From Minisyncoccia bacterium (GTDB lineage Bacteria > Patescibacteriota > Minisyncoccia > SW-4-49-11), in assembly GCA_044356325.1 (NCBI GenBank), contig JBIKWJ010000002.1, forward strand, positions 94,327-158,326: 64,000 bases of DNA, read 5' to 3'. The translations under genes and the position numbers were made by a program. This document shows, one piece after another, positions 2,890 to 45,468 of this stretch (the first letter of the stretch is position 1; every line of letters starts with the position of its first letter). The notes below the pieces were generated by a model. It was not told the origin of the DNA and ran no database searches. It was given only the letters and a program-made list of their open reading frames with translations.

Positions 2890-3045
2890 CAGAGGGGTAA
2901 ACCCTCTGCTACGAAAGTCCTCCTCCGTCACCTTACGGTGACACCTCCCCCAAGGGAGGACAACCTATTGTCCCTCGCTGGCGAGGGGGGTACCGCTTGC
3001 GGTGGGTGTGGACGGGCGACTGAAAGGTCGCCCCTACGAGAATAC
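2890..3045. repeat. Mosaic hairpin array (families D, G and C)
   Basis: Contains gtcctcctccgtcaccttacggtgacacctcc, cccaagggaggac, ccctcgctggcgaggg and gggcgactgaaaggtcgcccctac. Confidence 0.8.
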
Positions 3046-3337: not shown

Positions 3338-5143
3338 TTATCGATTAGATCTCTTTCGCTCATTGGAATCTAATACTCTTTTGCGAATTCGAAGACTCAT
3401 TGGAGTTACCTCGAGGAGTTCATCATCAGCCAAATATTCAATACTAGCTTCTAGAGACATATCTTTAGGAGGAGCAATAAATACCCCATCATCAGATCCA
3501 GAAGCTCGCATATTGGTAAGTTTCTTTGCCTTTACTGGATTAATTTCTACATCTTGCTCACGATTAGACTCTCCAAGCACCATACCTGGATATACTTCTG
3601 TTCCATCAGTTACAAAGAATACCCCTCTATCTGAAGCTCCATCGAGAGCATATTTGGTAATTTTCCCAAGTTCCAGAGAGACAATAGATCCGGTTAAACG
3701 ACCCTTACCACTAGATACTCGAGGTCCATATTCTAGAAAAGAACTATTCATAATCACAGTTCCTTTAGACAGGGTAAGAAGAATACTTCTAAGTCCAATC
3801 AAATTCTGTGTAGTAATCTTATATTCAATATGAGACTCATTATGATCATTGATTTCCATATTCACAAGCTCACCCTGTCGTTTATTGACAGCTTCAATGA
3901 TTTTACCGCTATATTCTTCTGGTACATCTAAACTTAATAGCTCATAAGGCTCTTCGGTAGCTCCATTATTGTCTCGAAGGATTACCTGAGGTCGCCCCAC
4001 TGAGAATTCATATCCTTCTCGTCGCATAGTTTCAATCAATACCGCTAAATGAAGCTCTCCGCGTCCCGCTACCAAAAATCTATCAGGACTTGCAGTATCT
4101 TCAATATTCAAGCTAATATTGGTCTCTTGCTCCTTATACAATCTATCTCGAATCATACGAGAAGTAGAATATTTTCCTTCTTTGCCTGAGAAAGGACTAT
4201 CATTAATCGCAAACATCATTTGAAGAGTTGGGCTTTCCACCTCAATAGGAGCTATTTGTACCGGATTTTGAGAGTCCGCAATAGTATCTCCAATTTCAAT
4301 ACCTCCTATTCCTGCAATAACCGCAATATCTCCCGCAATTAATTCATCAGTATCAATAAGTTCCATACCACTATATCGGAGTAGACTGGTAATAGTATTT
4401 TTGGTCTGATTACCTGCCTTATCAATACGCACTACTGACATACCTTTTACAATTTTCCCAGCATCAATTCTACCTACAGCCATAGTCCCTTTGAATTTAT
4501 CAAATTGAAGATTCAAGGTAAGCATTCTAAATGAATCTACAATAGGAGATGTTGGAGCTGGGATTTCATTGACAATCACATCAAATAATTCAGTCAAATC
4601 CTTATCTGTTTGATCGATTTCAAGAGATGCTGAGCCATTAATAGCAGAAGCATATACAATAGGGAAGTCTAATTGTTTATCATTAGCATTAAGCGTTACG
4701 AATAAATCAAAAGTCTTATCCACTACAGAGTCTGGATTAGCATCAGGCCGGTCAATTTTATTAATTACCACAACTACTCTAAGCCCCAAAGCTAAAGCCT
4801 TTTTGAGTACAAATTTGGTTTGAGGCATTGGACCTTCTTTAGAATCCACCAAAAGCAAAGCTCCATCAGCCATTTTAAGTACTCGCTCTACTTCTCCTCC
4901 AAAATCAGCATGACCAGGAGTATCAATCAAATTAATAGTATAATCTTTATAGCTAACTGAGGCATTCTTGGCTCTAATAGTAATACCTTTTTCCCGCTCC
5001 AAATCCATAGAATCCATCACACGCTCTTGCACAGCCTGATTTTCTCGAAAAATCTGAGTTTGATGCAAAATAGCATCCATCAAAGTAGTTTTACCATGAT
5101 CAACATGGGCAATAATGGCAAGATTACGGATATGGGAATTCAT
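3338..5143 (-). CDS. typA: Translational GTPase TypA/BipA
   Basis: IRNLAIIAHVDHGKTTL G1 motif, DTPGHADF and NKIDR. Length and domain order match BipA. The track start is a TTG, so the ATG at 5143 was chosen. Confidence 0.9.
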   Translation of the reverse strand: MNSHIRNLAIIAHVDHGKTTLMDAILHQTQIFRENQAVQERVMDSMDLEREKGITIRAKNASVSYKDYTINLIDTPGHADFGGEVERVLKMADGALLLVDSKEGPMPQTKFVLKKALALGLRVVVVINKIDRPDANPDSVVDKTFDLFVTLNANDKQLDFPIVYASAINGSASLEIDQTDKDLTELFDVIVNEIPAPTSPIVDSFRMLTLNLQFDKFKGTMAVGRIDAGKIVKGMSVVRIDKAGNQTKNTITSLLRYSGMELIDTDELIAGDIAVIAGIGGIEIGDTIADSQNPVQIAPIEVESPTLQMMFAINDSPFSGKEGKYSTSRMIRDRLYKEQETNISLNIEDTASPDRFLVAGRGELHLAVLIETMRREGYEFSVGRPQVILRDNNGATEEPYELLSLDVPEEYSGKIIEAVNKRQGELVNMEINDHNESHIEYKITTQNLIGLRSILLTLSKGTVIMNSSFLEYGPRVSSGKGRLTGSIVSLELGKITKYALDGASDRGVFFVTDGTEVYPGMVLGESNREQDVEINPVKAKKLTNMRASGSDDGVFIAPPKDMSLEASIEYLADDELLEVTPMSLRIRKRVLDSNERKRSNR

Positions 5144-5398
5144 AAACAATACAAAAATAAGTAATATATGTGCTCTTTTTGTTTATTGTACCTAAATATC
5201 AATAAAAATGCAAATGTATGACTTCACATCATCCACACTTTACTATAAATGTCACCTCTTGACATTTATGATAGGTGGGTGTATACTAGAATTCTGCTTA
5301 AGCAAAAGCAATACAAGTCAATATTATATGTACATATCAAGAGGAGCGTTGAGCTCCTCTTGTCGTATAGAAACTGTTCCATGTGGAACAATTTCATA

Positions 5399-5470
5399 GG
5401 GGCGACCTCGCAGTCGCCTGTATTCTCCGCCTTATAAAAAACCAGCCCTCCGAAAGGATCGGGGGCTGGG
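5399..5470 (-). terminator. Family-C hairpin remnant plus minus-strand terminator (ccagccctccgaaaggatcgggggctgg then a T-run)
   Basis: Inverted repeat with a T-run on the minus strand immediately 3' of CDS 5491-5799. Confidence 0.55.
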
Positions 5471-5490
5471 ACTAGGAGGAGGGAGGAGCC

Positions 5491-5799
5491 TCAGAGGTAG
5501 GAAAAATCAAGCCTTGAAACCGCGCGATAACCATCCTTACAGGAAGTGCCTTCAGGCAAGCTAAAGCGAATTCCCCAGAATCCTTGATTGTAGCCTGAGC
5601 GAGCTACCACAACCACCTCAATATCATTGTCCGTAAGGCACGGGAAGTCACGTTTGGCCTCAACAGCTAACTCATTCAAAAACGCGATACTGTGTTGATA
5701 GGTGTTGGCAGATAGAATAAATCCATTGGGGGATGTAAACTCATCGCGAGTTGGGTTGGTTGAGCTGTATGCGGTTACAATACGTTTGTCGTAACTCAT
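5491..5799 (-). CDS. Cassette ORF, hypothetical protein (102 aa), GC-rich relative to flanks
   Basis: Bounded by the conserved promoter at 5830-5857 and the terminator at 5436-5470. Composition is visibly richer in G and C than neighbouring genes. Confidence 0.5.
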   Translation of the reverse strand: MSYDKRIVTAYSSTNPTRDEFTSPNGFILSANTYQHSIAFLNELAVEAKRDFPCLTDNDIEVVVVARSGYNQGFWGIRFSLPEGTSCKDGYRAVSRLDFSYL

Positions 5800-19728: not shown

Positions 19729-20199
19729 TCAGTCGATAGGCTCTTCTGCCATAGGGATCTCTTCGATCCCGGAAAGAGTGAGAACAAACCTCTGCCAAGG
19801 ACGTTTGTAGTTGTAAGACTCGAAGACGAATCCTGGTACTGCTACCACCAATAGTCCCCCTTCACACCTCGCTTCCGAGGTGTGCCACACCTTAGGGGTG
19901 TGGCCAGTTACCTGGCGGAAACTGGCAGCCTTTATGAGAGCAACAACCCTATCATCACCTAGTGTGGTAACCTCAACCACACATTTGTTACCTGAACTTT
20001 GGAGCTTCGCTCCAGAAGGAGCAAAGGAGCTAAGAAAAATATCCTTTCCGTACTGGTAAAGGTACTTAATACCCTCTCCTTTAATACCAAGTGTTTTCCG
20101 GGTTGCTCCGGCTGAGTATATTTGTTCGGTCAGAGGCTCTGACCGAACATAGCCGGAACCGTAGTTTTGGAATCCCATAAGTCTGTTGCTAATGAACAT
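19729..20199 (-). CDS. Cassette ORF, hypothetical protein (156 aa), GC-enriched
   Basis: ATG lies about 12-25 nt downstream of the conserved promoter at 20211-20241 with no SD. Contains GHTPKVWHTSEARCEGG. No family assigned. Composition is richer in G and C than the backbone. Confidence 0.5.
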   Translation of the reverse strand: MFISNRLMGFQNYGSGYVRSEPLTEQIYSAGATRKTLGIKGEGIKYLYQYGKDIFLSSFAPSGAKLQSSGNKCVVEVTTLGDDRVVALIKAASFRQVTGHTPKVWHTSEARCEGGLLVVAVPGFVFESYNYKRPWQRFVLTLSGIEEIPMAEEPID

Positions 20200-20464: not shown

Positions 20465-21391
20465 TCATGAGAGGAGATGTTTCTCCACCACGGCCACAAC
20501 CTCGTCGATAGTGAGCTTCGAGCTCACACCCTGTGGCGAGCCACCGATGGTCGGGGAACCACCCCAACCAGCCTCGAGAGTGTCGAGCTCCGCAAGCGCC
20601 GACTTGATGTCCGCGAACCCGCCAGAGAACTGGCAGATCGTAAACTTCTTGCAAGGCTCGCTCGGCCCCTGCCTGAAACTCGGGTTGAGCGCGACTACTA
20701 CTGGAGCAAGGGCATACCCAATGCTGAGAGCAGCACGATGCGTACTCTCTACCACCGCAATGAGGCCAAAGGAGACCATCTCGTACCTGATAGTTCCGCT
20801 TTCGAGAGCGGTGATCATGTCGATCCGCTCCCTCTCGACCTGTGTGCGATACTGTTCGGGTTCCTCACCCGCGAGCAGCCACAACTCCATCGTGGCAACA
20901 CGGTCAGCCAGCGGAACCCTGAAGTCCATGACTGCTGCCGCGATCGCCGCGAGATGGCGGGAAGACTCGGCCGTCGCCGTCTCCTCTATCCACGGGTTGT
21001 CCCGGGTCGGGAGGGGCTTCGGGCCAGAGTAGCCGCCACGCGCGAACTTGTCCGAGGTGGCGACCATCGTGACTCGCTCCATCGCGGGCTCGAGGCTTTC
21101 GCCATTCGCCCGGAGATTGAAGAGCGCCATCGCTCCGACCGCGTCGAGATCGGCGCGAACCGTCGCGAGAGTCGAGCCCTCGGGCGGAAGCTCCGCCGTC
21201 AGCGCGTCCTCGATGGCCGCACGATTGGCGTCACCGCCCGTGTGCTGGGGGTCGATGTTGAAGGTGCAACGCTCTGCGAGCGAGGGCACTGTCACTTCGA
21301 TCCCATAGACGGGGTTAGCGAACACCTTGTCGTTGGCCTCCGTGGCAGCCGAAATGTTGCGGGGGTCGAGAGTTGCGAAGCTGTAAACCAT
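20465..21391 (-). CDS. Cassette ORF, hypothetical protein (about 308 aa) of strikingly high GC (foreign-looking)
   Basis: Minus strand chosen because the conserved promoter at 21427-21457, GGAG 9 nt before ATG (MVYSFATLD) and the terminators at 20395-20460 are all minus-oriented. All six frames are open, as expected in high-GC DNA. Confidence 0.5.
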   Translation of the reverse strand: MVYSFATLDPRNISAATEANDKVFANPVYGIEVTVPSLAERCTFNIDPQHTGGDANRAAIEDALTAELPPEGSTLATVRADLDAVGAMALFNLRANGESLEPAMERVTMVATSDKFARGGYSGPKPLPTRDNPWIEETATAESSRHLAAIAAAVMDFRVPLADRVATMELWLLAGEEPEQYRTQVERERIDMITALESGTIRYEMVSFGLIAVVESTHRAALSIGYALAPVVVALNPSFRQGPSEPCKKFTICQFSGGFADIKSALAELDTLEAGWGGSPTIGGSPQGVSSKLTIDEVVAVVEKHLLS

Positions 21392-31889: not shown

Positions 31890-31937
31890 TAATTATCTTA
31901 TTTTTATAGCTTATTATATATCATTTGATTTTTCCAA

Positions 31938-32135
31938 TACTTCCGAGGTCTATCTGTTTCTGCTAGAATAGCAATCACATCGATAATAGAAAAATACCAT
32001 TTTTCTTGATCAACATACCAAATACTACGAACCTGTTTTTTTCAAATAGTTTGATTGCTATATCTTTTTTCATAGAATTAGCTTAGATATATTTATTATA
32101 TCTCTTTTGTCGAGAATTGTGCTATATGCACTCAA
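31938..32135 (-). pseudogene. Truncated duplicate of the dinD-like gene's promoter and first about 50 codons
   Basis: About 200 bp nearly identical to 32818-33020. Own translation gives MKKDIAIKLFEKKQVRSIWYVDQEKWYFSIIDVIAILAETDRPRKYW then stop. Confidence 0.6.
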
Positions 32136-32142
32136 TATAATT

Positions 32143-32964
32143 TTAGTTCTTATCAATGAGCTTTTTTGCTGATATGGAACTAACAACCTTTTTTCCCGTT
32201 TTCTCCTCTATTTCCCTTCGAGTATTGCCCGCAATAGTACCACCTTGATTTGCTATGACTTTATTCTGGTCAAAGTTCTTAGGCTTTTTCTCTTTACTAA
32301 TTTCGGTAGTTGTTGCTTCTGCAAGCATATTAAGAACTAGCTCTAAGTTAGTCATATTATCTCGTAAATTCTCTTTTTTTAGATTTTTGTATTGTTTATA
32401 TGCTTTGACCGATAAACCGCTCCAAGCTCTTGTAATTTCATCCGTTAATATAGCATATTCTTGTCCCTTTTTTACTCCTCTTATATCCCACTCATCAGTA
32501 AGTTCTTTTCTTACCTCTATACTTTTAAGTCTTTGATTTACCCATTCTTTAGAATATCCCTTTTTGAGATATATCTCCATCAATCTATCTATTCCAAGCT
32601 CTGGATCTTCAATTTCATCGAGACGCTCCCGCGCAACCTGTGCTATCCATATTTTAAAAGGTTCAGCTTTAGGAGAAGGGATAGATTGAATAAGTCTAAA
32701 TAATTGCTCCGTATCAGCAACATCAGTAAGTCTTAATTTTCCATCCGAAGCTTTTATTTTCAACTGTCCGATATTTTCGGACAGTTCACTTCCTTCATTA
32801 CCAAGTTTTGTTTTGAGATCATTCCAATACTTCCGAGGTCTATCTGTTTCTGCTAGGATAGCAATCACATCAATAATAGAAAAATACCATTTTTCTTGAT
32901 CAACATCCCAAATACTACGAACCTGTTTTTTCTCAAATAATTTGATTGCTATATCTTTTTTCAT
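32143..32964 (-). CDS. dinD: DinD-like protein with N-terminal Bro-N domain (DNA-damage-inducible protein D / phage antirepressor family)
   Basis: N-terminal LFEKKQVRSIWDVDQEKWYFSIIDVIAILAETDRPRKYWNDL matches the Bro-N pattern. Length and organisation match E. coli DinD (274 aa). Confidence 0.6.
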   Translation of the reverse strand: MKKDIAIKLFEKKQVRSIWDVDQEKWYFSIIDVIAILAETDRPRKYWNDLKTKLGNEGSELSENIGQLKIKASDGKLRLTDVADTEQLFRLIQSIPSPKAEPFKIWIAQVARERLDEIEDPELGIDRLMEIYLKKGYSKEWVNQRLKSIEVRKELTDEWDIRGVKKGQEYAILTDEITRAWSGLSVKAYKQYKNLKKENLRDNMTNLELVLNMLAEATTTEISKEKKPKNFDQNKVIANQGGTIAGNTRREIEEKTGKKVVSSISAKKLIDKN

Positions 32965-33094
32965 AGAATTAGCTTAGATGTATTTATTATACTCTTTTGT
33001 CCAGAATTGTGCTATATGGATAGTATATTTTTGTAAAGGTCTTATTATTGATAATTCTCATCTTATTGAAATCTATATTATGTGTTGTTATGTA

Positions 33095-34387: not shown

Positions 34388-35176
34388 TTACCCCCAACAA
34401 TATAATAACCTTAAATGTATAGGCATTAGGAGAAGATTCCAAAACCAACCATACCATTTGGCGATATATTTTCTCTGGGCGGTATAATATCGCTCTTTGG
34501 TTTTACGAATATTGCTCTCTGAGCCTCCTTCTTGATGCCAGACGGTGATTTGTTGAGTCCACTCTATATCTCTCCCTATTTGTTTAGCTCGATAGCATAA
34601 ATCTATATCTTCATAATACATAAAATATCTCTCATCAAAGCCTCCAAGTTTACGGAATAAGGCGGTCTCGATACAGAGTGAGCCTCCACTTACCCAATCG
34701 GTGGATATAGTCTGTTCTGTAGGCATTTGCCAAGTCTTTTTAGCTGTATTCCTGATTATACTCTGAGGTGTGGGGAAAACTCCATACTGATACTCTTGTA
34801 TTCTCGTATTATTATCCACCAGAGCCAGTCCCATTATCCCTGTATTTTCACCAATTGTGGATAATGTGTGGATATCTCCTTGTATCTTGGTGTCGGGGTT
34901 AATAATACATAGCCAGTAACCTGTCGCAATAGTCACTCCTATATTCACTCCAGCGCCAAATCCAGCATTTTTATCTGAATACACAATATGTATTCTTTCT
35001 GTGGATAAGTCTTTGAGACTATCGAGATTCTCTCCCGAATTATTCTCGACTACTATTATCTCATATTCTCCTGTGGTGGATGAGATAATAGCTTTTATAC
35101 AGTCTTCTAGATAATGCTTAGTCTTATATGAGACTATAATAAAGGATATGGTTTTATTCTTGAATATTGATGGCAT
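34388..35176 (-). CDS. Family 2 glycosyltransferase
   Basis: ISFIIVSYKT..IIVVENNS..DKNAGFGAGVN..D, the GT-A fold DXD-type pattern of GT2. Confidence 0.75.
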   Translation of the reverse strand: MPSIFKNKTISFIIVSYKTKHYLEDCIKAIISSTTGEYEIIVVENNSGENLDSLKDLSTERIHIVYSDKNAGFGAGVNIGVTIATGYWLCIINPDTKIQGDIHTLSTIGENTGIMGLALVDNNTRIQEYQYGVFPTPQSIIRNTAKKTWQMPTEQTISTDWVSGGSLCIETALFRKLGGFDERYFMYYEDIDLCYRAKQIGRDIEWTQQITVWHQEGGSESNIRKTKERYYTAQRKYIAKWYGWFWNLLLMPIHLRLLYCWG

Positions 35177-37913: not shown

Positions 37914-38450
37914 TTAATTATCAAAATCTTTTGCTTTTAAATTAAAGATTTTTTGATTTATACTATAAATTCCTATATTAAAAATATTATTATCATCATG
38001 AAGAGTAATAACATCTACCCTATTAAAAATAAAGGTGGGGAAGTTACTATTATCAGTTGTAGCAATAAATAACTCATTTCTTTTTGAGTTATATTTAATC
38101 ATTTGTGCTGCAATTAAACAATCTCCAAATGAAATTTGTTTAGCATACTTAATATTTTTTCTAGAGTATATATTGGAAATTAAACGGGCTTTTTCAAATA
38201 CACTTTTATCTACTGGAAGCTCCATCCTATTAGATCCTAATAATAAATCAAGATATTCTTGCTTTGCTTGTAAATCTTCTTGAGTTGTACACCCTCTCAA
38301 AAATTCAAATTTAATCGTCTGATCTATAACTGATTTTACATTTAAGTCAAATATTCTTTCGAAGAATAGAGTGAATATCTCTTCGTTTTTTACATTATAT
38401 ATTAATAAGTTTGTATCTAAAAGAAGATGTTTACCCCTAATTTCTTCCAT
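37914..38450 (-). CDS. PIN-domain protein (VapC-like toxin)
   Basis: LLLDTNLLIY N-terminal PIN signature. Start MEEIRGK overlaps the stop of the upstream small ORF by 14 nt. Confidence 0.5.
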   Translation of the reverse strand: MEEIRGKHLLLDTNLLIYNVKNEEIFTLFFERIFDLNVKSVIDQTIKFEFLRGCTTQEDLQAKQEYLDLLLGSNRMELPVDKSVFEKARLISNIYSRKNIKYAKQISFGDCLIAAQMIKYNSKRNELFIATTDNSNFPTFIFNRVDVITLHDDNNIFNIGIYSINQKIFNLKAKDFDN

Positions 38451-38601
38451 AAGATATACCTTCTTTATTTTGTTCTCTCTCTTCTCTTTCAATAATTTCT
38501 TTCACTTTTTTTATACTTGCCTTAAGAGCATCATCAAAAAGGTAAGCTGGTCTATTGACTAAAGTTGATTGATTATTTATTGGTTTAACTTTTTTATCCA
38601 T
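38437..38601 (-). CDS. Putative antitoxin partner of the PIN protein (54 aa)
   Basis: Own translation: MDKKVKPINNQSTLVNRPAYLFDDALKASIKKVKEIIEREEREQNKEGISYGRN. Its stop overlaps the PIN start, the classic type II TA arrangement. Confidence 0.4.
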   Translation of the reverse strand: MDKKVKPINNQSTLVNRPAYLFDDALKASIKKVKEIIEREEREQNKEGISYGRN

Positions 38602-38753
38602 ATTTTTAGATTATATATCTTTATAATATCATATGATAGAGGTTGTTTCTAGATTTAAATACCATAATATTTAAATACAATTTAGCTTTATTATTAATAA
38701 TGAATTTCCTAAAGTGAATTCAAGGTGAATTATAGCTCATATACAATCTTTAT

Positions 38754-38810
38754 TGTGGATATCTTTGCAAAAATCCTGCAATAGCGTATAATAAAATCAA
38801 CTTATCCACA
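38754..38810. promoter_or_regulatory. DnaA boxes upstream of dnaA (tgtggatat at 38754-38762, near-consensus reverse; ttatccaca at 38802-38810, perfect)
   Basis: Read directly. TTGCAA N16 TATAAT promoter lies between them. Confidence 0.55.
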
Positions 38811-38842
38811 GATTATCAACATCATCAATTTAGACGATTGCA

Positions 38843-40285
38843 ATGGACGAGAAACAAAGAGTTTGGAACTCCGTATTAGGTGAGATAGAGCTCAATATTA
38901 GTAAACCTCAGTTTAATACCTGGATCAAAAATACTTATCCTATAAGTATGGATGAGAAAGAAATTGTAATTTGCGTGCCAAGCGCTTTTACACGGGATTG
39001 GCTTGAGAATAAATTTAATGTTACTATTCTAAACTCTATTCAAAAGATTACTGGCTCTATAAAGCGGGTAAAATATGTCGTTCAGAATACGCAAAAACAA
39101 TCCCCAAAAGCTATTCAATCTGTTATTAATCTCAAAAATAAAGAATTAAAGGAGAAAAAGTCTAAAATTGAGGAGAAAGAGAAAACCCCATCTACGAATC
39201 CCCATTATCAATATGCTGAGCCTACTATTATCCCAGACAGACCAAGTGGAACGGCTCTCTTAAAAGATAATTATACCTTTGAGAATTTTATTGTGGGCTC
39301 CTCCAATGAACTTGCTCATGCTGCGGCTCAATCAGTTGCTAATGAACCTGGAACTCGATATAATCCTTTATTCATTTATGGTGGTGTGGGCCTTGGTAAA
39401 ACGCATCTTATTCAAGCTATTGCTAATAGTCTCAATAAAAAGAATAAGAATATTCTGTATGTTACCTCGGATGTATTCATCTCAGATTTGATGAATTCTC
39501 TCAAAAATGGGCGTATGGAAGATTTTAAAGCTCGGCATAGAGCTGTTGATCTCTTGATTATTGATGACATTCAATTTATCGGGGGTAAAGAAGCTACTCA
39601 ATATGAGGTTTTCAATACCTTTAATGATTTATATGCTCATAATAAGCAAATTGTGTTTACGAGTGATAGACCACCGAGTGCAATAAAGACCTTAAATGAT
39701 AGATTAAAATCTCGATTCGAAGGGGGTATGATTGTGGATGTTGCTATTCCAGAATTTGAAACTCGTGTGGCTATTCTCAAAAGTAAATGTATTCAAAAGA
39801 ATTTTCATCTTGATGATGCTATTATTTATGTTATTGCGGAGCGTATTCGAAGCAATGTGAGAGAATTAGAGGGAGCTCTCAATAAAATTATTGGGCGAGT
39901 ACAGCTGCTCGGTACTAAAGTTACTCCTGAATTAGTAGATAAACTGATTGAGGGAGGACAAATTCATTCTCAGCGTATTGTCAATAGTGATATGATTCTG
40001 GATATAGTAGCTAATCATTTTCATATTAACAAAGCTGATATATTATCTAAAAGCCGTAAAAAAGATATTGCGATACCGCGTCAAATTGCAATGTATCTCA
40101 TTCGAGAAGAATTAAAACTCACTTTCCCAAATATTGGAGAATTATTAGGGGGAAAAGATCATAGTACAGTTATGCATGCTTGGAATAAGGTAAAAAAGGA
40201 TATTGTAACTAATTATAGCCTTGAGCAAGATATTACTCTTATTAAGAATAAACTGTATAATGAAGAAAACCCTGTAAATTCTTAG
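38843..40285 (+). CDS. dnaA: Chromosomal replication initiator DnaA
   Basis: AAA+ Walker A GGVGLGKTHL, Walker B LLIIDDIQF, sensor motifs, and the C-terminal DNA-binding domain. Confidence 0.9.
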   Translation: MDEKQRVWNSVLGEIELNISKPQFNTWIKNTYPISMDEKEIVICVPSAFTRDWLENKFNVTILNSIQKITGSIKRVKYVVQNTQKQSPKAIQSVINLKNKELKEKKSKIEEKEKTPSTNPHYQYAEPTIIPDRPSGTALLKDNYTFENFIVGSSNELAHAAAQSVANEPGTRYNPLFIYGGVGLGKTHLIQAIANSLNKKNKNILYVTSDVFISDLMNSLKNGRMEDFKARHRAVDLLIIDDIQFIGGKEATQYEVFNTFNDLYAHNKQIVFTSDRPPSAIKTLNDRLKSRFEGGMIVDVAIPEFETRVAILKSKCIQKNFHLDDAIIYVIAERIRSNVRELEGALNKIIGRVQLLGTKVTPELVDKLIEGGQIHSQRIVNSDMILDIVANHFHINKADILSKSRKKDIAIPRQIAMYLIREELKLTFPNIGELLGGKDHSTVMHAWNKVKKDIVTNYSLEQDITLIKNKLYNEENPVNS

Positions 40286-40346
40286 AAATTAGTAGTGTTA
40301 TACTTGGATAAAACTACTAATTGACTTAATATAGTAAACAAAAAAA

Positions 40347-40371
40347 CACTCCAACCACGATGGAAGGAGTG
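40347..40371 (-). terminator. Cassette terminator (cactccaaccacgatggaaggagtg followed by a T-run on the minus strand)
   Basis: Duplicate at 41109-41133. Confidence 0.6.
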
Positions 40372-40412
40372 CGGGGGAGAGTTTAAAATATGGATTTAAA
40401 TGAATGAATTGT

Positions 40413-40628
40413 TTATACCTCAACAATTTTTGCATTTATTACTCTCATTATAGACTCGCCTCGTTGTTTTACCAAAACAGATGACCCTGTGCTTAAATCT
40501 ATCCTGGTCCTGTTGTTCGAATCGGCGACATATGATGCTGAAACAGCCACTATCAGATCTGGTCGAATGTAGACAGGCCCGTCATGGCTGGTCAGTGAAA
40601 GAAATTCAGTTTCGGTTGATTCGTCCAT
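40413..40628 (-). CDS. Cassette ORF, hypothetical protein (71 aa), GC-enriched
   Basis: Track start is the TTG of the -35 hexamer; trimmed to the ATG (MDESTETEF). Bounded by conserved promoter and terminator. Confidence 0.4.
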   Translation of the reverse strand: MDESTETEFLSLTSHDGPVYIRPDLIVAVSASYVADSNNRTRIDLSTGSSVLVKQRGESIMRVINAKIVEV

Positions 40629-40653
40629 GGAAAAATCGGCGATGTTTACAAAA

Positions 40654-40688
40654 CTATATATACCACATTTTCCTAATTTTGTCAATAG
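40654..40688 (-). promoter_or_regulatory. Conserved cassette promoter (TTGACAAAATTAGGAAAATGTGGTATATA)
   Basis: Start of an about 420-bp block (promoter, AT leader, hairpin array) repeated at 41296. Confidence 0.6.
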
Positions 40689-40799
40689 TTGTTGTTATTT
40701 ATTTTTAACATTTACTATTGTCTATAGCATTATTAATTAATTTATTATTATATTTTGTTATGATTTTATATTTTTTATAGTTATGACATTATGTTTTTG

Positions 40800-41075
40800 T
40801 CCCCCTTTGCCTGCCTGCGGTAGGCAGGGAGGGGGAAGCATGAAAGGCGGGGGTGGATAAAAGTAAGTCCATATTCTAAATTTAATATTATTAGAAAATA
40901 TAAATAACTTTTATCTCTATCCACCTCCGGCACTTCGTGCCACCTCCTCCTAAGGAGGACAGAAGCTCAAATTACATACACACCCGCCGACTCTAAGAAT
41001 TTACCAATAATACTATAGTAAAATCCACCCACCCCGTCAGGCAACCCTGCCGATAGTACTTTCATATATAGAGAT
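40800..41075. repeat. Hairpin array, copy 1 of tandem block
   Basis: gtccccctttgcctgcctgcggtaggcagggagggggaagc, ggcgggggtggataaa..70 bp AT..ctctatccacctccggcacttcgtgccacctcctcctaaggaggac, ccaccccgtcaggcaaccctgcc. A near-identical array lies at 41440-41640. Confidence 0.8.
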
Positions 41076-41108
41076 ATTATATAGTTAATTGATATAGTAA
41101 ACTAAAAG

Positions 41109-41133
41109 CACTCCAACCAAGATGGAAGGAGTG
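41109..41133 (-). terminator. Cassette terminator, copy 2
   Basis: cactccaaccaagatggaaggagtg. Duplicate of 40347-40371. Confidence 0.6.
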
Positions 41134-41153
41134 CGGGGGAGTGTTTGTGAAAC

Positions 41154-41273
41154 TCAATTCACGACTTTGTCTGCCTTGTCTTGCCTGAAAAACAAGATAT
41201 GAATCAGAGCAAGGGGGGTTGCAATGATCATAGCAACTGTGACCATAACTCTGGTCGAAGAAGGAAGTTTCAT
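41154..41273 (-). CDS. Hok-like mini-ORF (39 aa: MKLPSSTRVMVTVAMIIATPLALIHILFFRQDKADKVVN), candidate type I toxin-like membrane peptide
   Basis: Own translation. The ATG lies 17 nt after the conserved -10 and the stop precedes the terminator. The alternative track frame reads through the terminator and was rejected. Resembles the Hok N-terminus MKLP..S followed by a TM segment. Confidence 0.3.
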   Translation of the reverse strand: MKLPSSTRVMVTVAMIIATPLALIHILFFRQDKADKVVN

Positions 41274-41295
41274 GACAGTAAAATGAACATACATT

Positions 41296-41328
41296 ATATA
41301 TACCACATTTATCCGTTTTTGTCAATAG
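41296..41328 (-). promoter_or_regulatory. Conserved cassette promoter, copy 2 of tandem block
   Basis: TTGACAAAAACGGATAAATGTGGTATATA. Confidence 0.6.
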
Positions 41329-41439
41329 TTATTGTTATTTATTTTTAACATTTACTATTGTCTATAGCATTATTAATTAATTTATTATTATATTTTGTTA
41401 TGATTTTGTATTTTTTATATAGGTGTGACATTATGTTTT

Positions 41440-41810
41440 TTTGTCCCCCTTTGCCTGCCTGCGGTAGGCAGGGAGGGGGAAGCATGAAAGGCGGGGGTGG
41501 ATAAAAGTAAGTCCATATTCTAAAATTTAATATTATTAGAAAATATAAATAACTTTTATCTCTATCCACCTCCGGCACTTCGTGCCACCTCCTCCTAAGG
41601 AGGACAGAAGCTCAAATGACATACACACCCGCCGACTCTAAGAATTTACCAATCATACCATAGTAAAAGCGGGCGACTGAAAGGTCGCCCCTACGAGTAC
41701 AGAAATCTCCACCCCGTCAGGCAAGCCTACCACCCCCTCCCAATATCTCTTCTCAAGAGCTAATGGGAGGGACTTAAAGCCCTCAATTTATCGACCGTAG
41801 GTGGAGAGGG
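41440..41810. repeat. Hairpin array, copy 2, plus additional modules
   Basis: Same modules as 40800-41075. It continues with gcgggcgactgaaaggtcgcccctacg, ccaccccgtcaggcaagcctacc and ccctcaatttatcgaccgtaggtggagagggg. Confidence 0.8.
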
Positions 41811-41819
41811 GAATTAAAT

Positions 41820-42150
41820 ACACAATTCCCTACCTATTGTGTATAACCTGTGTATAACTTATACAAAATCCCTAAATTTCTGTGAATAATATTGTGTATA
41901 AATAGGACTTAATCCACAGAGTATTTTTAACCCTTACTTTATCCCCAAAGTTTCACAAGACTTATCCCAAATGATATCCCCACTTGACATACACTATTTA
42001 TGCGGGTAAAAACCAGTTTTCAGCTTTTCCACACAGACTACTATCTACTATTATACTTTATATAAATAAAGGACAAAAAGACAAATAACCTAGAAAAAAG
42101 AAATTATTCAAGGTATAATACATATATAGAAATAGAATAAGATAGAGAAG
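41820..42150. promoter_or_regulatory. oriC-like region between the cassettes and dnaN: clustered DnaA-box-like 9-mers plus a very AT-rich stretch
   Basis: Three copies of tgtgtataa (one mismatch from TGTGGATAA), ttaatccaca, and ttatcccca-type boxes. About 150 bp of AT-rich sequence lies before dnaN. Confidence 0.45.
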
Positions 42151-42152
42151 AT

Positions 42153-43262
42153 ATGAAATTTACCTGTTTGCAAGAAAATCTTTTAAAGGGATTAAGTATA
42201 GCTCGCCAGAGTTCTTCTCGGGCTACAACATTACCTGTTTTACAAACCTTTTTATTACAAGGAGATAAGGGATCTCTTACTATTAGCTCCACCAATTTAG
42301 AAATTGGAATACGAGTACATATTAGAGGTAAAGAAGAAGCTGAAGGTGCTATTTGTATTCCTCAAGATACATTGCTTGCCTATATTCGAAATTTGCCTCA
42401 AGATAAATTAGATTTAACAGTAGTAGATGATAAACTCACTATAGAACAAGGAAAGGATATTACAGCTGAATTCAAAGGTATTATTGCAGATGAATTTCCA
42501 CAACTTCCTCAAATAGAAGCAGATAAGCAATTGGTAGTAGGAAGTACGGAACTCAAACAAGCTCTCAAAACAGTATATGGGGCTTTGCCTAAAAATGATT
42601 TCCGCCCAGAAATATCGGGAGTATATATTGCAAAAAAAGATCAGCAATTAATTTTTGTGGGAACTGATGGATTTCGCCTTAGTGAAAAAAGAATTACTCT
42701 TTCAAGTCCCGCTGAAGAGAATTTCTCTCTGATTATTCCAAGTAAAACAGTAGCAGAAATTATTCGAGTATTAGATTCTCTAGAAGAAATAGAAGTTACC
42801 CTTCAATTTGGAGCTTCTCAAATACATATTATTGCCGATACCGTTGAGATTATATCAAAATTAATTGAGGGAAATTTTCCTCAATATGAGGGACTTATTC
42901 CTCAAACATTTCAAACTGTTGTGGATGTGGACAGTCAAGAATTAGTACAGGCTATAAAATTAGCTTCGGTATTTTCTCAGAATACGGTTCATGATGTCAA
43001 ATTAACCATACAAGATGATAGTACTTTGAGTATTAGTTCTTCTGATTCTCAAGTTGGAGCTAATACCACCAAATTACCGGTGCATAGTACGGGAGAGACG
43101 GGACTTGCCGTTGCCTTTAATTATAATTATCTTTTAGATGGGATACAATTATTCGGTGATAAGCCCATACAATTCAATGTTAATGATACTGATTCTCCTG
43201 TTATTATCAAAAGTCCAGATATTCCTGATTTCTTTTATCTTATAATGCCAATTCGAGACTAA
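42153..43262 (+). CDS. dnaN: DNA polymerase III beta sliding clamp
   Basis: 369 aa with a three-domain beta-clamp. Conserved position next to dnaA. Confidence 0.85.
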   Translation: MKFTCLQENLLKGLSIARQSSSRATTLPVLQTFLLQGDKGSLTISSTNLEIGIRVHIRGKEEAEGAICIPQDTLLAYIRNLPQDKLDLTVVDDKLTIEQGKDITAEFKGIIADEFPQLPQIEADKQLVVGSTELKQALKTVYGALPKNDFRPEISGVYIAKKDQQLIFVGTDGFRLSEKRITLSSPAEENFSLIIPSKTVAEIIRVLDSLEEIEVTLQFGASQIHIIADTVEIISKLIEGNFPQYEGLIPQTFQTVVDVDSQELVQAIKLASVFSQNTVHDVKLTIQDDSTLSISSSDSQVGANTTKLPVHSTGETGLAVAFNYNYLLDGIQLFGDKPIQFNVNDTDSPVIIKSPDIPDFFYLIMPIRD

Positions 43263-44787: not shown

Positions 44788-44988
44788 TTAAAGACTAAAA
44801 TTTTCAGCGTATTTACCAATAAGAGGAAGTTCTTTTTCTTCTCCAGATAAGGCATTAATAATTCCAATAATAAATAAAATAAGAGAAAGTATACTACCAA
44901 AAAATGCAATTAACCAACCTAATAGAGGAATAATACCAATAATACTAATAGCAACAGTAAAAACTAATAAAGTAAGAGATTGTTTCAT
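44788..44988 (-). CDS. Small membrane protein, possibly the 3' part of a frameshifted gene
   Basis: Two TM helices. A 37-aa ORF (MSEEKKTSEKIIVVPTNRQKNIAAISYIF..) lies just upstream in another frame, and a single frameshift near 45050 would fuse them. Confidence 0.35.
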   Translation of the reverse strand: MKQSLTLLVFTVAISIIGIIPLLGWLIAFFGSILSLILFIIGIINALSGEEKELPLIGKYAENFSL

Positions 44989-45266
44989 ATGAAACTTTAC
45001 AAAAGGAGAGTCTTTTTCTACGGTAAAATATCCAATAATAAAGAGAATATATAGCTAATAGCAGCAATATTCTTTTGTCTATTTGTTGGGACTACTATTA
45101 TTTTTTCAGAGGTCTTTTTTTCTTCACTCATAATAATAGTATTAATATATTTTTAGTATACTCCTAATATATTATTATGTATATAGAGTGTATGAGATGA
45201 TGAGATTGTAGACAAAAGATATCACTATGTATTATTAGGCTACCAAATGTAGCTTGGTACAAAAAT

Positions 45267-45395
45267 TGTCCTCCTTTGCCTGCCTGCGGTAGGCAGGGAG
45301 GAGGTGGCCGCCAGGCCGGAGGTGGATAGAGTTTAAGTTTTTACCTTATCCACCCCCACCTTTCAGGCTCCCCCTCCGAAGGGGGACAATATATG
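45267..45395. repeat. Mosaic hairpin array (families D/I-like, E and F)
   Basis: gtcctcctttgcctgcctgcggtaggcagggaggaggtggccgccaggccggaggtggatagagtttaagtttttaccttatccacccccacc, ccccctccgaagggggac. Confidence 0.8.
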
Positions 45396-45468
45396 AGAAA
45401 CTATAAGGTAACCCCAATAAATCACAACTCGTCTACGATATAGCTCATCCTATATATAGGAAAAAATA

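Follow-up and report, generated by a model that had tools for sequence, protein, structure and literature searches.

The subject of this report is the spacer between the replication genes dnaA and dnaN in a 64,000-nucleotide stretch of Minisyncoccia contig JBIKWJ010000002.1, referred to throughout as the window. The spacer is unusually long, at 1867 bp, and harbors a tandem-duplicated block with two small expression cassettes, each consisting of a promoter, a short open reading frame (ORF) and a terminator. Comparison with related genomes indicates that the spacer has two parts: a conserved core of about 320 bp, which abuts dnaN and appears to be the replication origin (oriC), and about 1.5 kb of strain-specific accessory DNA to the left of the first DnaA box. 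The accessory part is probably a variable islet, driven by recombination at the dnaA/oriC boundary and thus similar in kind to a "minimal mobile element".

The dnaA-dnaN spacer and its tandem-duplicated block

The dnaA gene (38843-40285, plus strand) encodes a protein of 480 amino acids with the Pfam domains Bac_DnaA, Bac_DnaA_C and DnaA_N, and dnaN (42153-43262, plus strand) a protein of 369 amino acids with all three DNA_pol3_beta domains. Upstream of dnaA lie rnpA and rpmH, and dnaN is followed by a ComM/Mg-chelatase-like gene. A preliminary description of this DNA had put dnaA and dnaN about 1.9 kb apart and had reported tandem copies in between, near-identical over about 400 bp at a period of about 640 bp, each with a different cargo ORF and a duplicated terminator. 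All of this is borne out. A repeat finder returns a block of about 370-400 bp in tandem duplicate, the copies being 94-99% identical and spaced 640-645 bp apart; the cargo ORFs are found at 40413-40628 (ORF1) and 41154-41273 (ORF2), and the corresponding parts are as follows.

40655-40779 versus 41295-41419: 94% identity
40794-40883 versus 41438-41527: 99% identity
40878-41023 versus 41523-41668: 98% identity
40342-40384 versus 41104-41146: duplicated terminator hairpin region, 43 nt, with a GC-rich hairpin, 93% identity

Globally aligned, the two units stay near-identical between the promoter -10 and about 41023/41668. An additional 40-nt insertion follows in unit 2, at about 41668-41707; it resembles repetitive extragenic palindromic (REP) elements, and homology restarts beyond it, at 41029-41051 versus 41709-41731. 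In 100 shuffles of the window there were 0 matches to any of three probes of 20 to 31 nt, which were taken from a hairpin palindrome, from the terminator hairpin and from the promoter module. The observation of a tandem-duplicated cassette block in the dnaA-dnaN spacer is confirmed.

Both cassettes read promoter, ORF, terminator on the minus strand, convergent with dnaA and pointing away from oriC. The order given previously, of promoter, leader and hairpin array, has to be reversed: transcription runs leftward and the hairpin array lies upstream of the promoter, so that the duplicated block represents a promoter together with the DNA upstream of it, rather than a promoter and a leader. The promoters are of the near-consensus sigma-70 type, TTGACA-17-TGgTATATA with an extended -10, and were missed by the promoter scanner because it demands a T at position 6 of the -10. 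A leader of about 20-28 nt separates promoter and ORF. At the end of each cassette stands a CACTCC...GGAGTG hairpin, with a T-run behind it on the minus strand alone; in cassette 1, the predicted transcript fold has it as its terminal hairpin. From left to right, the accessory part is composed of the following features.

40287-40339, minus strand: distal end of cassette 1, with an AT-rich inverted repeat (40287-40301/40308-40322) and the motif TATAGTAAAC
40340-40384, minus strand: intrinsic terminator of cassette 1, hairpin 40347-40371, seven T at 40346-40340
40413-40628, minus strand: ORF1, 71 codons from ATG, an orphan of uncertain coding status
40657-40685, minus strand: promoter of cassette 1, TTGACA, 17-nt spacer, TGgTATATA
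40686-40794, no strand: AT-rich block 1, about 110 nt, upstream of promoter 1, with a candidate divergent plus-strand extended -10, TGTTATGAT (40756-40764)
40795-41051, no strand: hairpin array 1, a mosaic built from GC-rich palindromes found dispersed through the genome
41052-41103, minus strand: junction of the two units, with the distal end of cassette 2; unique sequence with the TATAGTAAAC motif
41104-41146, minus strand: intrinsic terminator of cassette 2, hairpin 41109-41133, then CTTTTAGTTT on the minus strand
41154-41273, minus strand: ORF2, 39 amino acids, MKLPSSTRVMVTVAMIIATPLALIHILFFRQDKADKVVN, with another in-frame start at 41294
41297-41325, minus strand: promoter of cassette 2, TTGACA, 17-nt spacer, TGgTATATA, the spacer resembling that of the allele in relative L007
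41326-41439, no strand: AT-rich block 2, duplicate of 40686-40794
41440-41830, no strand: hairpin array 2, duplicating array 1, with an added REP-like unit GGGCGACTGAAAGGTCGCCCCTAC (41671-41694) and more dispersed palindromes at 41731-41830

The same site in related genomes

The comparison set encompasses 18 related dnaA-dnaN spacers from 17 contigs. A DnaA-based scan gave 12 loci, from metagenome-assembled genomes of Parcubacteria/Paceibacteria, and look-ups of ORF1 homologues gave six more contigs (L013-L016, L018 and L019); locus L017, from a metagenome scan, is the same contig as L014. The site is found in several states.

Empty site, spacer of 323-363 bp: L001 (the closest relative, 99% DnaA identity), L002, L008, L009, L012
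Hairpins only: L003, L005, L006
Single ORF1 cassette: L010, L014, L015, L016 and the short contigs L018 and L019
ORF1 cassette and a further ORF of 252 amino acids between oriC and dnaN: L013
Single cassette with a different ORF (75 amino acids, two membrane spans): L007
Two cassettes (a 50-amino-acid membrane ORF, then ORF2 at 90% identity): L004

The 18 spacers thus comprise five empty sites, three with hairpins only, eight with one cassette and one with two, L011 being left out of the classes (69% DnaA identity; its 508-bp spacer does not align with that of the window). In the alignment of the window with its 11 closer relatives, 12 sequences in all, only the last 320 bp or so (41831-42152) can be aligned. 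The comparison of relatives proposed in the preliminary description therefore separates a conserved right-hand part from a left-hand part that is empty, filled with hairpins alone, or occupied by one or two cassettes. The distal end of cassette 1 (40287-40339) is missing from the five empty sites.

At least four different cargo ORFs occur at this one site, three of them within the same promoter/terminator frame; the fourth, in the upstream cassette of L004, has the shared promoter block and a terminator of its own. All ORF1 homologues found sit at this locus. Between the two L004 cassettes is a duplicated dnaA 3' fragment of 73 codons (400-472 plus the stop; L004 5309-5527).

Other gene content in the neighborhood also varies. 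In L013, the AT-rich ORF of 252 amino acids (4941-5699, reverse-complemented) lies between the oriC AT-rich tract and dnaN, and copies of part of the dnaN promoter region flank it on each side. On the other side of dnaA, between rpmH/rnpA and dnaA, a PIN-domain (VapC-like) ORF of 192 amino acids (37914-38601, minus strand) follows an ORF of 54 amino acids. It is present in L016, as well as in a contig that is probably the source of the window, and is replaced by a different gene of about 260 amino acids in L001 and by one of 259 in L014, so that strain-specific insertion hotspots flank dnaA on both sides.

The replication origin

The right-hand part of the spacer has the features expected of an origin, listed here together with the region upstream of dnaA.

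41831-42152, no strand: proposed oriC core, with a box cluster at 41838-42033, the trio-like repeat CTACTATCTACTATTATAC at 42038-42056, an AT-rich tract and the dnaN promoter
42091-42119: dnaN promoter, TAGAAA-17-TATAAT
38768-38821, plus strand: dnaA promoter and conserved DnaA box, TTGCAA-16-TATAAT, box TTATCCACA at 38802-38810 and an adjacent degenerate TTATCAACA

The DnaA-box-like 9-mers and AT-rich stretch noted earlier in front of dnaN are indeed there. Seven matches to TTATCCACA with at most one mismatch fall within the 200 bp of 41838-42033, the densest DnaA-box cluster of the window, in which 47 such matches are observed against 22.8 expected. The boxes run as four TGTG(T/A)ATAA, then TAATCCACA, TTATCCCCA, TTATCCCAA, TATCC(C/A)CAC and TTTTCCACA, and are followed by the repeat CTACTATCTACTATTATA, the AT-rich tract and the dnaN promoter (TTCAAGGTATAAT). 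The succession of the box TTTTCCACA (42025-42033), the CTACTATCTACTATTATAC repeat, which we take to be DnaA-trios, and the AT-rich tract is conserved throughout. The boxes do not vary among the 12 aligned sequences, in contrast to the spacers separating them, a pattern read as the phylogenetic footprint of oriC. On this evidence the conserved core at 41831-42152 is identified as the putative origin, and the cassettes lie directly to its left, next to the origin as first supposed.

The wider sequence is compatible with this placement. Large ORFs lie on the minus strand from 27.7 to 38.5 kb and on the plus strand from 38.8 to 44.8 kb, with the switch at the rpmH/dnaA boundary, and the minimum of the cumulative GC skew is broad, at about 33-46 kb. 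The GC-skew analysis that had been suggested is thus compatible with an origin here and, since only 64 kb are covered, does not place it precisely.

Origins of the Firmicute type lie between dnaA and dnaN and contain DnaA boxes, DnaA-trios and an AT-rich unwinding element; those of Bacillus and Helicobacter have a second half upstream. The origin described here resembles the former in its box cluster, its CTA/TAG-type trinucleotide repeat and its AT-rich tract directly upstream of dnaN, and differs in that its boxes are mostly TGTGTATAA or TTATCCCCA variants. Unlike the Bacillus and Helicobacter origins, it lacks support for an upstream half. A bipartite oriC had been proposed from perfect boxes in front of dnaA. 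Among 15 relatives, only about 130 bp of that region is conserved; the box at 38754 is lost in most of them, and the sole invariant box is TTATCCACA at 38802-38810, which directly follows the -10 of the conserved dnaA promoter. A box just downstream of the dnaA promoter occupies the classic autoregulatory position. The 38802-38810 box is thus most likely an autoregulatory operator and not the second half of an origin, for which the conservation pattern provides no support.

Two side observations concern the DnaA region. A tandem AAAGTGAA(N4-5)A(A/G)GTGAA motif at 38720-38740, some 40-50 bp upstream of the dnaA promoter, is kept in 14 of the 15 relatives (all except the most distant, L011) and may be the binding site of a regulator. 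Two more DnaA-box clusters lie far from dnaA, at 34812-35008 and 48-405, each with four boxes that include two perfect TTATCCACA; they may be titration sites or regulated promoters.

Horizontal exchange of the cassettes

The principal evidence for movement of the cassettes is a discrepancy in divergence. Between the window and L010 or L014, dnaA and dnaN share 76-80% nucleotide identity, whereas the segment from terminator to promoter shares 93-96% and the AT block with its hairpins 98-99%, and identity jumps abruptly at the dnaA stop codon. An ORF1 cassette that is 93-99% identical beside genes that are 76-80% identical argues for horizontal exchange of the cassette. Across lineages (four other assemblies, two species), the promoter/AT block of the ORF1 cassettes is 99-100% identical. 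In unit 2 of the window, the corresponding block is only 92% identical to that of unit 1 and its promoter spacer is like the L007 allele, which argues against a simple in-situ copy of unit 1. Unit 2 appears instead to be a second allele, the upstream block of which has been partly homogenised.

It is proposed that the cassettes would pass between lineages by homologous, or homology-facilitated illegitimate, recombination of incoming DNA, with dnaA, oriC and the shared cassette frame acting as anchors, such that no dedicated recombinase would be needed. The tandem state would arise when an ORF2-type allele is added beside a resident ORF1-type allele, after which the shared block would be partly homogenised. 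The dnaA fragment in L004 looks like the footprint of homology-facilitated illegitimate recombination, and no recombinase or transposase was found among the 21 neighboring window ORFs that were scanned. Together with the confinement of ORF1 homologues to a single site, these findings point to general, homology-driven recombination. Beyond the locus, a metagenome scan for the AT block gave one match, at an already-known locus, and a viral scan gave none.

Several points weigh against a recombination-driven islet. The recombination is inferred, and so are the functions assigned to ORF1 and ORF2. The near-identity of the promoter/AT block contrasts with 4-7% divergence within ORF1, which a simple recent transfer does not explain, and hints at selection on the block or at its conversion. 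Insertion always occurs exactly after the dnaA stop codon, which a site-specific mechanism would fit too, and ORF1 is without purifying selection in any frame.

The near-invariance of the AT block, along with the membrane-peptide cargo, also gives a slim chance to a bolder reading, in which the element is a horizontally spreading "plug-in" expression cassette. Its terminator, promoter and AT block would form a fixed frame into which small ORFs, type I-like toxin peptides among them, are swapped, and it would be maintained through the indispensability and high copy number of the origin.

The cargo ORFs and the toxin-antitoxin question

The 39-amino-acid MKLP..TM peptide of ORF2 had been likened to the toxin Hok, and ORF2 had been regarded as the low-confidence coding sequence of the pair. 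Neither view is sustained. Neither the 39- nor the 46-amino-acid form of ORF2 has a Pfam or NCBIfam match even at E ≤ 10, PHROGs and PADLOC give no match, and BLASTP with a Hok sequence gives no alignment at E ≤ 100, only the N-terminal MKLP being shared. With all of these negative, Hok and other toxin or defence families are rejected. No small-protein homologue of ORF2 was found in collections of 5.8 billion and 1.84 billion proteins, and a word-indexed search was empty; an exhaustive search gave two long proteins only, which are probably membrane-segment matches.

In composition, ORF2 has one membrane span (Kyte-Doolittle maximum over 19 residues, 2.37), its C-terminus is charged, and it lies within the generic size and hydrophobicity limits of type I toxins (<60 amino acids, one transmembrane helix). 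The copy at the same site in L004 is 90% identical, the differences being four conservative replacements (K2R, M10I, V13I and I16V) and two synonymous changes. This is better coding evidence than that for ORF1, in which the ratio of non-synonymous to synonymous polymorphism (pN/pS) is about 1.85 and a stop codon interrupts the frame in one relative. ORF2 is therefore a credible single-pass membrane peptide, toxin-like in composition only, and would be a strongly expressed, origin-proximal one.

Around ORF2, no conserved antisense promoter was found, nor an RNA complementary to its mRNA. With a leader of only about 20-25 nt, no mok-like leader ORF was seen, nor, by eye, a plus-strand promoter shared with L004 from which a sok-like antisense could arise; L004 does not retain the candidate plus-strand promoter seen at 41069-41098. 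The scan reported no plus-strand terminator, and the repeat finder no repeat of more than 10 nt complementary to the ORF2 mRNA. In the predicted mRNA, UGAAACU of the start region (41270-41276) pairs with AGUUUCA just past the stop (41148-41154), with a G-U pair in L004, and this 7-bp pairing may act as a fold-back that masks the start codon.

The type I toxin-antitoxin loci hok/sok, ldr/rdl, ibs/sib, zor/orz and fst are tandemly repeated. It is conceivable, if unlikely, that the cassettes are modules of this type, in which ORF2 and the membrane ORFs of L004 and L007 would be membrane-depolarising toxins, held in check by an antisense or divergent small RNA, and the tandem arrangement would be an amplification as in the ldr, ibs/sib or zor/orz loci. 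Of the four cargo ORFs, three are indeed small membrane peptides (39, 50 and 75 amino acids, with Kyte-Doolittle 19-residue maxima of 2.4-2.8), with strong promoters, bounded by terminators and found in tandemly repeated units. The pairing of start and stop regions, kept as G-U in L004, recalls fold-back inhibition, there is the candidate plus-strand promoter, and a PIN toxin module lies on the opposite side of dnaA. Against this, similarity to Hok, or to any toxin profile, is absent, and ORF1 lacks a hydrophobic character. The candidate antisense promoter has not been kept in L004, the scan gave no plus-strand terminator, complementary repeats of more than 10 nt are absent, the divergent promoter does not overlap the mRNA, and a 5'-3' pairing of only 7 bp could be chance. 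In some respects, then, the locus mirrors type I loci, with short hydrophobic peptides, strong promoters, units of a few hundred bp in tandem, an intergenic position and a possible 5'-3' fold-back. It differs from them in having no sequence or profile similarity and no identified antitoxin RNA, and in that one of its two cargos is not hydrophobic.

ORF1 is more enigmatic. Its family consists of seven clusters only, all at least 83% identical and all at the 3' end of dnaA. The polymorphic sites are distributed 9/17/7 over codon positions 1/2/3, which is not significantly non-uniform, and there is an in-frame TAA in L010 and a 3-nt insertion in L016. The excess at position 2 suggested a plus-strand antisense ORF at 40481-40708; with a pN/pS of 0.65-0.69 and a stop in L016, it is not convincing. 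A structured RNA is rejected: in RNAalifold with five homologues, one of 82 pairs is compensatory, the covariation term is positive and there are pair-breaking substitutions. The best AlphaFold2 model, a mediocre one with a pLDDT of 71.6 (39-59 for the others), has five strands and a helix, and Foldseek against the PDB returns nothing below E = 0.03, with a LytTR-like resemblance only. Having neither a coding signature nor RNA covariation, ORF1 may therefore be a fast-evolving small protein or a non-coding transcript.

The promoter type of the cassettes is also found elsewhere. A near-identical module, TTGACAAAAnnAGGAAAATGTGGTATA, occurs at seven minus-strand sites left of the origin (5855, 13764, 15336, 20239, 21455, 40685 and 41325), each driving a short ORF of 39-308 amino acids, none of which has a Pfam, PHROG or PADLOC match; a GC-rich terminator ends all five of the units that were read through. 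Two of these ORFs are adjacent, one of 308 amino acids (20465-21391, minus strand) with 63% GC in a genome of about 35% GC, and one of 156 amino acids (19729-20199, minus strand) with 48% GC. The idea that the module is a device for capturing foreign GC-rich genes is rejected. The 308-amino-acid protein has no Pfam domain and belongs to a large conserved family, with at least 668 matches, those listed being 60-85% identical, and wherever the source name identifies a taxon it is Patescibacteria/Paceibacterota.

Hairpin arrays and dispersed palindromes

The arrays upstream of the promoters are made of short GC-rich palindromes that recur over the window: GCCTGCCTGCGGTAGGCAGG is also found at 45278, GGGCGACTGAAAGGTCGCCCCTAC five times and CCCCTCTTGAGGGG several times. 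There are 52 perfect GC-rich hairpins in the window, nearly all left of 45.4 kb and almost none at 46-64 kb. A REP-like family, (C/T)GTAG followed by GGGCGAC-CTTTCA-GTCGCCC, has eight copies in both orientations, at 3014, 5401, 6394, 11093, 21610, 21998, 30227 and, within array 2, 41671 (41671-41694). In related contigs, the hairpin sub-modules are found at unrelated positions in both orientations; a module of about 210 bp (40828-41035) is inverted in L004, and a block nested within a GTCTCCCTTTGGAGG hairpin distinguishes L005 from L006.

Folding of the arrays is strong whichever strand is taken (plus strand, z = -6.0 and -7.5; minus strand, z = -3.1 and -5.1). Rfam gives only tRNAs at gathering score in the window, and for 40200-42200 only miRNA-model matches far below their gathering scores. 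A strand-specific RNA gene is rejected, given this folding on both strands, the modules in both orientations and the inversion in L004. Dispersal in both orientations, along with that inversion, is the reason for treating the arrays as DNA-level repeats, and they appear to be elements akin to REP and to miniature inverted-repeat transposable elements (MITEs) that gather in permissive intergenic DNA. Guide arrays of the TIGR type, reported in the literature as TIGR-Tas in Parcubacteria, are also rejected, as no regular repeat-spacer periodicity is seen.

REP elements of E. coli carry a 5' GTAG. The arrays resemble these elements and their mosaics (bacterial interspersed mosaic elements, BIMEs), as well as MITE-like nested palindromes, in their short GC-rich imperfect palindromes, intergenic mosaics, both orientations and GTAG-plus-hairpin family. 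They differ from REP and BIME in their AT-rich, reduced Parcubacteria host and in seeming to nest inside each other's loops, as in L005 versus L006. No gene for a REP-associated tyrosine transposase (RAYT) or IS200-like protein was seen in the window, the search extending to the scanned ORFs. To the right of dnaN, a segment of 675 bp (44793-45467) that is missing in L001 contains an AT-rich, apparently disrupted minus-strand ORF for a small membrane-like protein and a nested-palindrome element (45263-45394) related to those at 40794 and 1582-1662.

A rival reading is a dedicated site-specific mobile system, either integron-like or non-autonomous and mobilised in trans, that would target the dnaA stop/oriC boundary and use the hairpins or AT-rich ends as recombination sites. 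Insertion directly after the dnaA stop codon in every case, the sharp identity jump at that boundary, conserved ends with swapped cargo, tandem stacking in both the window and L004, and the accompanying palindromes, including the REP-like family, would all suit such a system. It is nevertheless quite unlikely: the 21 scanned ORFs include no integrase or transposase, neither attC-like conserved ends nor target-site duplications can be defined, the frame is found at this locus only, the L004 dnaA fragment indicates general recombination, and in L003 and L005 hairpin arrays are present where there is no cassette, the arrays moreover taking either orientation. An integron gene cassette in particular is rejected, since each cassette has its own promoter and terminator, no integrase is encoded by the 21 ORFs and no shared attC-like ends are visible by eye.

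Origin function and assembly

In E. coli, gidA transcription runs away from oriC and mioC transcription towards it. By analogy, the promoter block could be a functional accessory of the origin, in which strong transcription away from oriC, and possibly from a divergent promoter towards it, aids unwinding and the ORFs are incidental. The cassette promoters, 0.5-1.2 kb left of oriC, do point away from it, and no part of the cassette is better conserved than the non-coding promoter/AT block (99-100%), beside a drifting ORF1 that has no coding signature. Such a role is improbable, because L001 and four other relatives have the same oriC core without the block, which is therefore dispensable; in addition, recent horizontal spread explains the near-identity of the block better, and the terminators limit transcription to about 200-300 nt.

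Least probable is an artefact of metagenome assembly, in which two strain alleles have been joined through their shared repeat. The tandem arrangement is seen in one metagenomic contig; the sole contig with an identical ORF1 protein, having the same 1867-bp spacing and neighboring genes, is probably the source of the window and hence not an independent copy of the exact arrangement. The shared repeat of about 400 bp exceeds typical k-mers, and alleles with either cargo occur in nature. The copies differ, however, by indels and a 40-nt insertion as well as in identity (94-99%). The junction at 41052-41103 is unique sequence, where an allelic chimaera would need the 3' end of dnaA, and is neither that nor repeat; and L004, an independent assembly, likewise has two cassettes with ORF2 nearest oriC. 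On these sequence features an artefact is judged unlikely. Another tandem duplication in the window, 31927-32100 versus 32817-32991 (95-96% identity, period about 890 bp), overlaps an ORF with a BRO-N domain (32143-32964).

Comparison with known systems and significance

The closest parallel to a recombination-driven islet is provided by the minimal mobile elements of Neisseria (Saunders & Snyder 2002). As cited in PMC1797815, these are alternative sets of one to three genes found in different strains at one syntenic site; no recombinase is linked to them, and their movement is ascribed to DNA uptake and homologous recombination with the flanks. The likeness lies in alternative small gene content at one syntenic site between conserved genes, with four ORFs across 18 spacers here. 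The identity jump, the discordant divergence of cassette and flanks and the L004 dnaA fragment would fit exchange by recombination. In contrast to the Neisseria elements, the flanks here are dnaA and the origin itself, the cargos share a promoter/terminator frame, stack in tandem and are accompanied by palindrome arrays, and the host belongs to an uncultivated Parcubacteria lineage that is not known to undergo transformation.

A second parallel is the dnaA:dnaN region of Mycobacterium tuberculosis, an insertion hotspot of IS6110 (PMC3701491). In both cases an oriC-bearing dnaA-dnaN spacer tolerates, and repeatedly gains, strain-specific insertions. There the insertion is an autonomous insertion sequence with a transposase, whereas here it takes the form of promoter-ORF-terminator mini-genes without one. 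The locus combines known phenomena, namely variable islets, origin-spacer insertion hotspots and tandem small-peptide modules, and is not a new category.

The significance of the locus is several-fold. Placing the origin of an uncultivated Parcubacteria lineage in a conserved core of 320 bp is useful both for estimating replication rates from peak-to-trough ratios and for genetic tools. The near-invariant promoter/terminator frame is a candidate natural expression cassette for bacteria of the candidate phyla radiation. If the membrane peptides are toxic, type I-like toxins would extend to that radiation; were the "plug-in" reading true, the locus would represent, as far as known, the first toxin-like addiction or cargo-swapping system in these bacteria and a new kind of origin-targeted element without a recombinase of its own. 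Abundant REP/MITE-like palindromes are unexpected in a reduced genome. Finally, although the genome is very small, the DNA adjacent to its origin is plastic, and carries strain-specific mini-genes that are exchanged between species.

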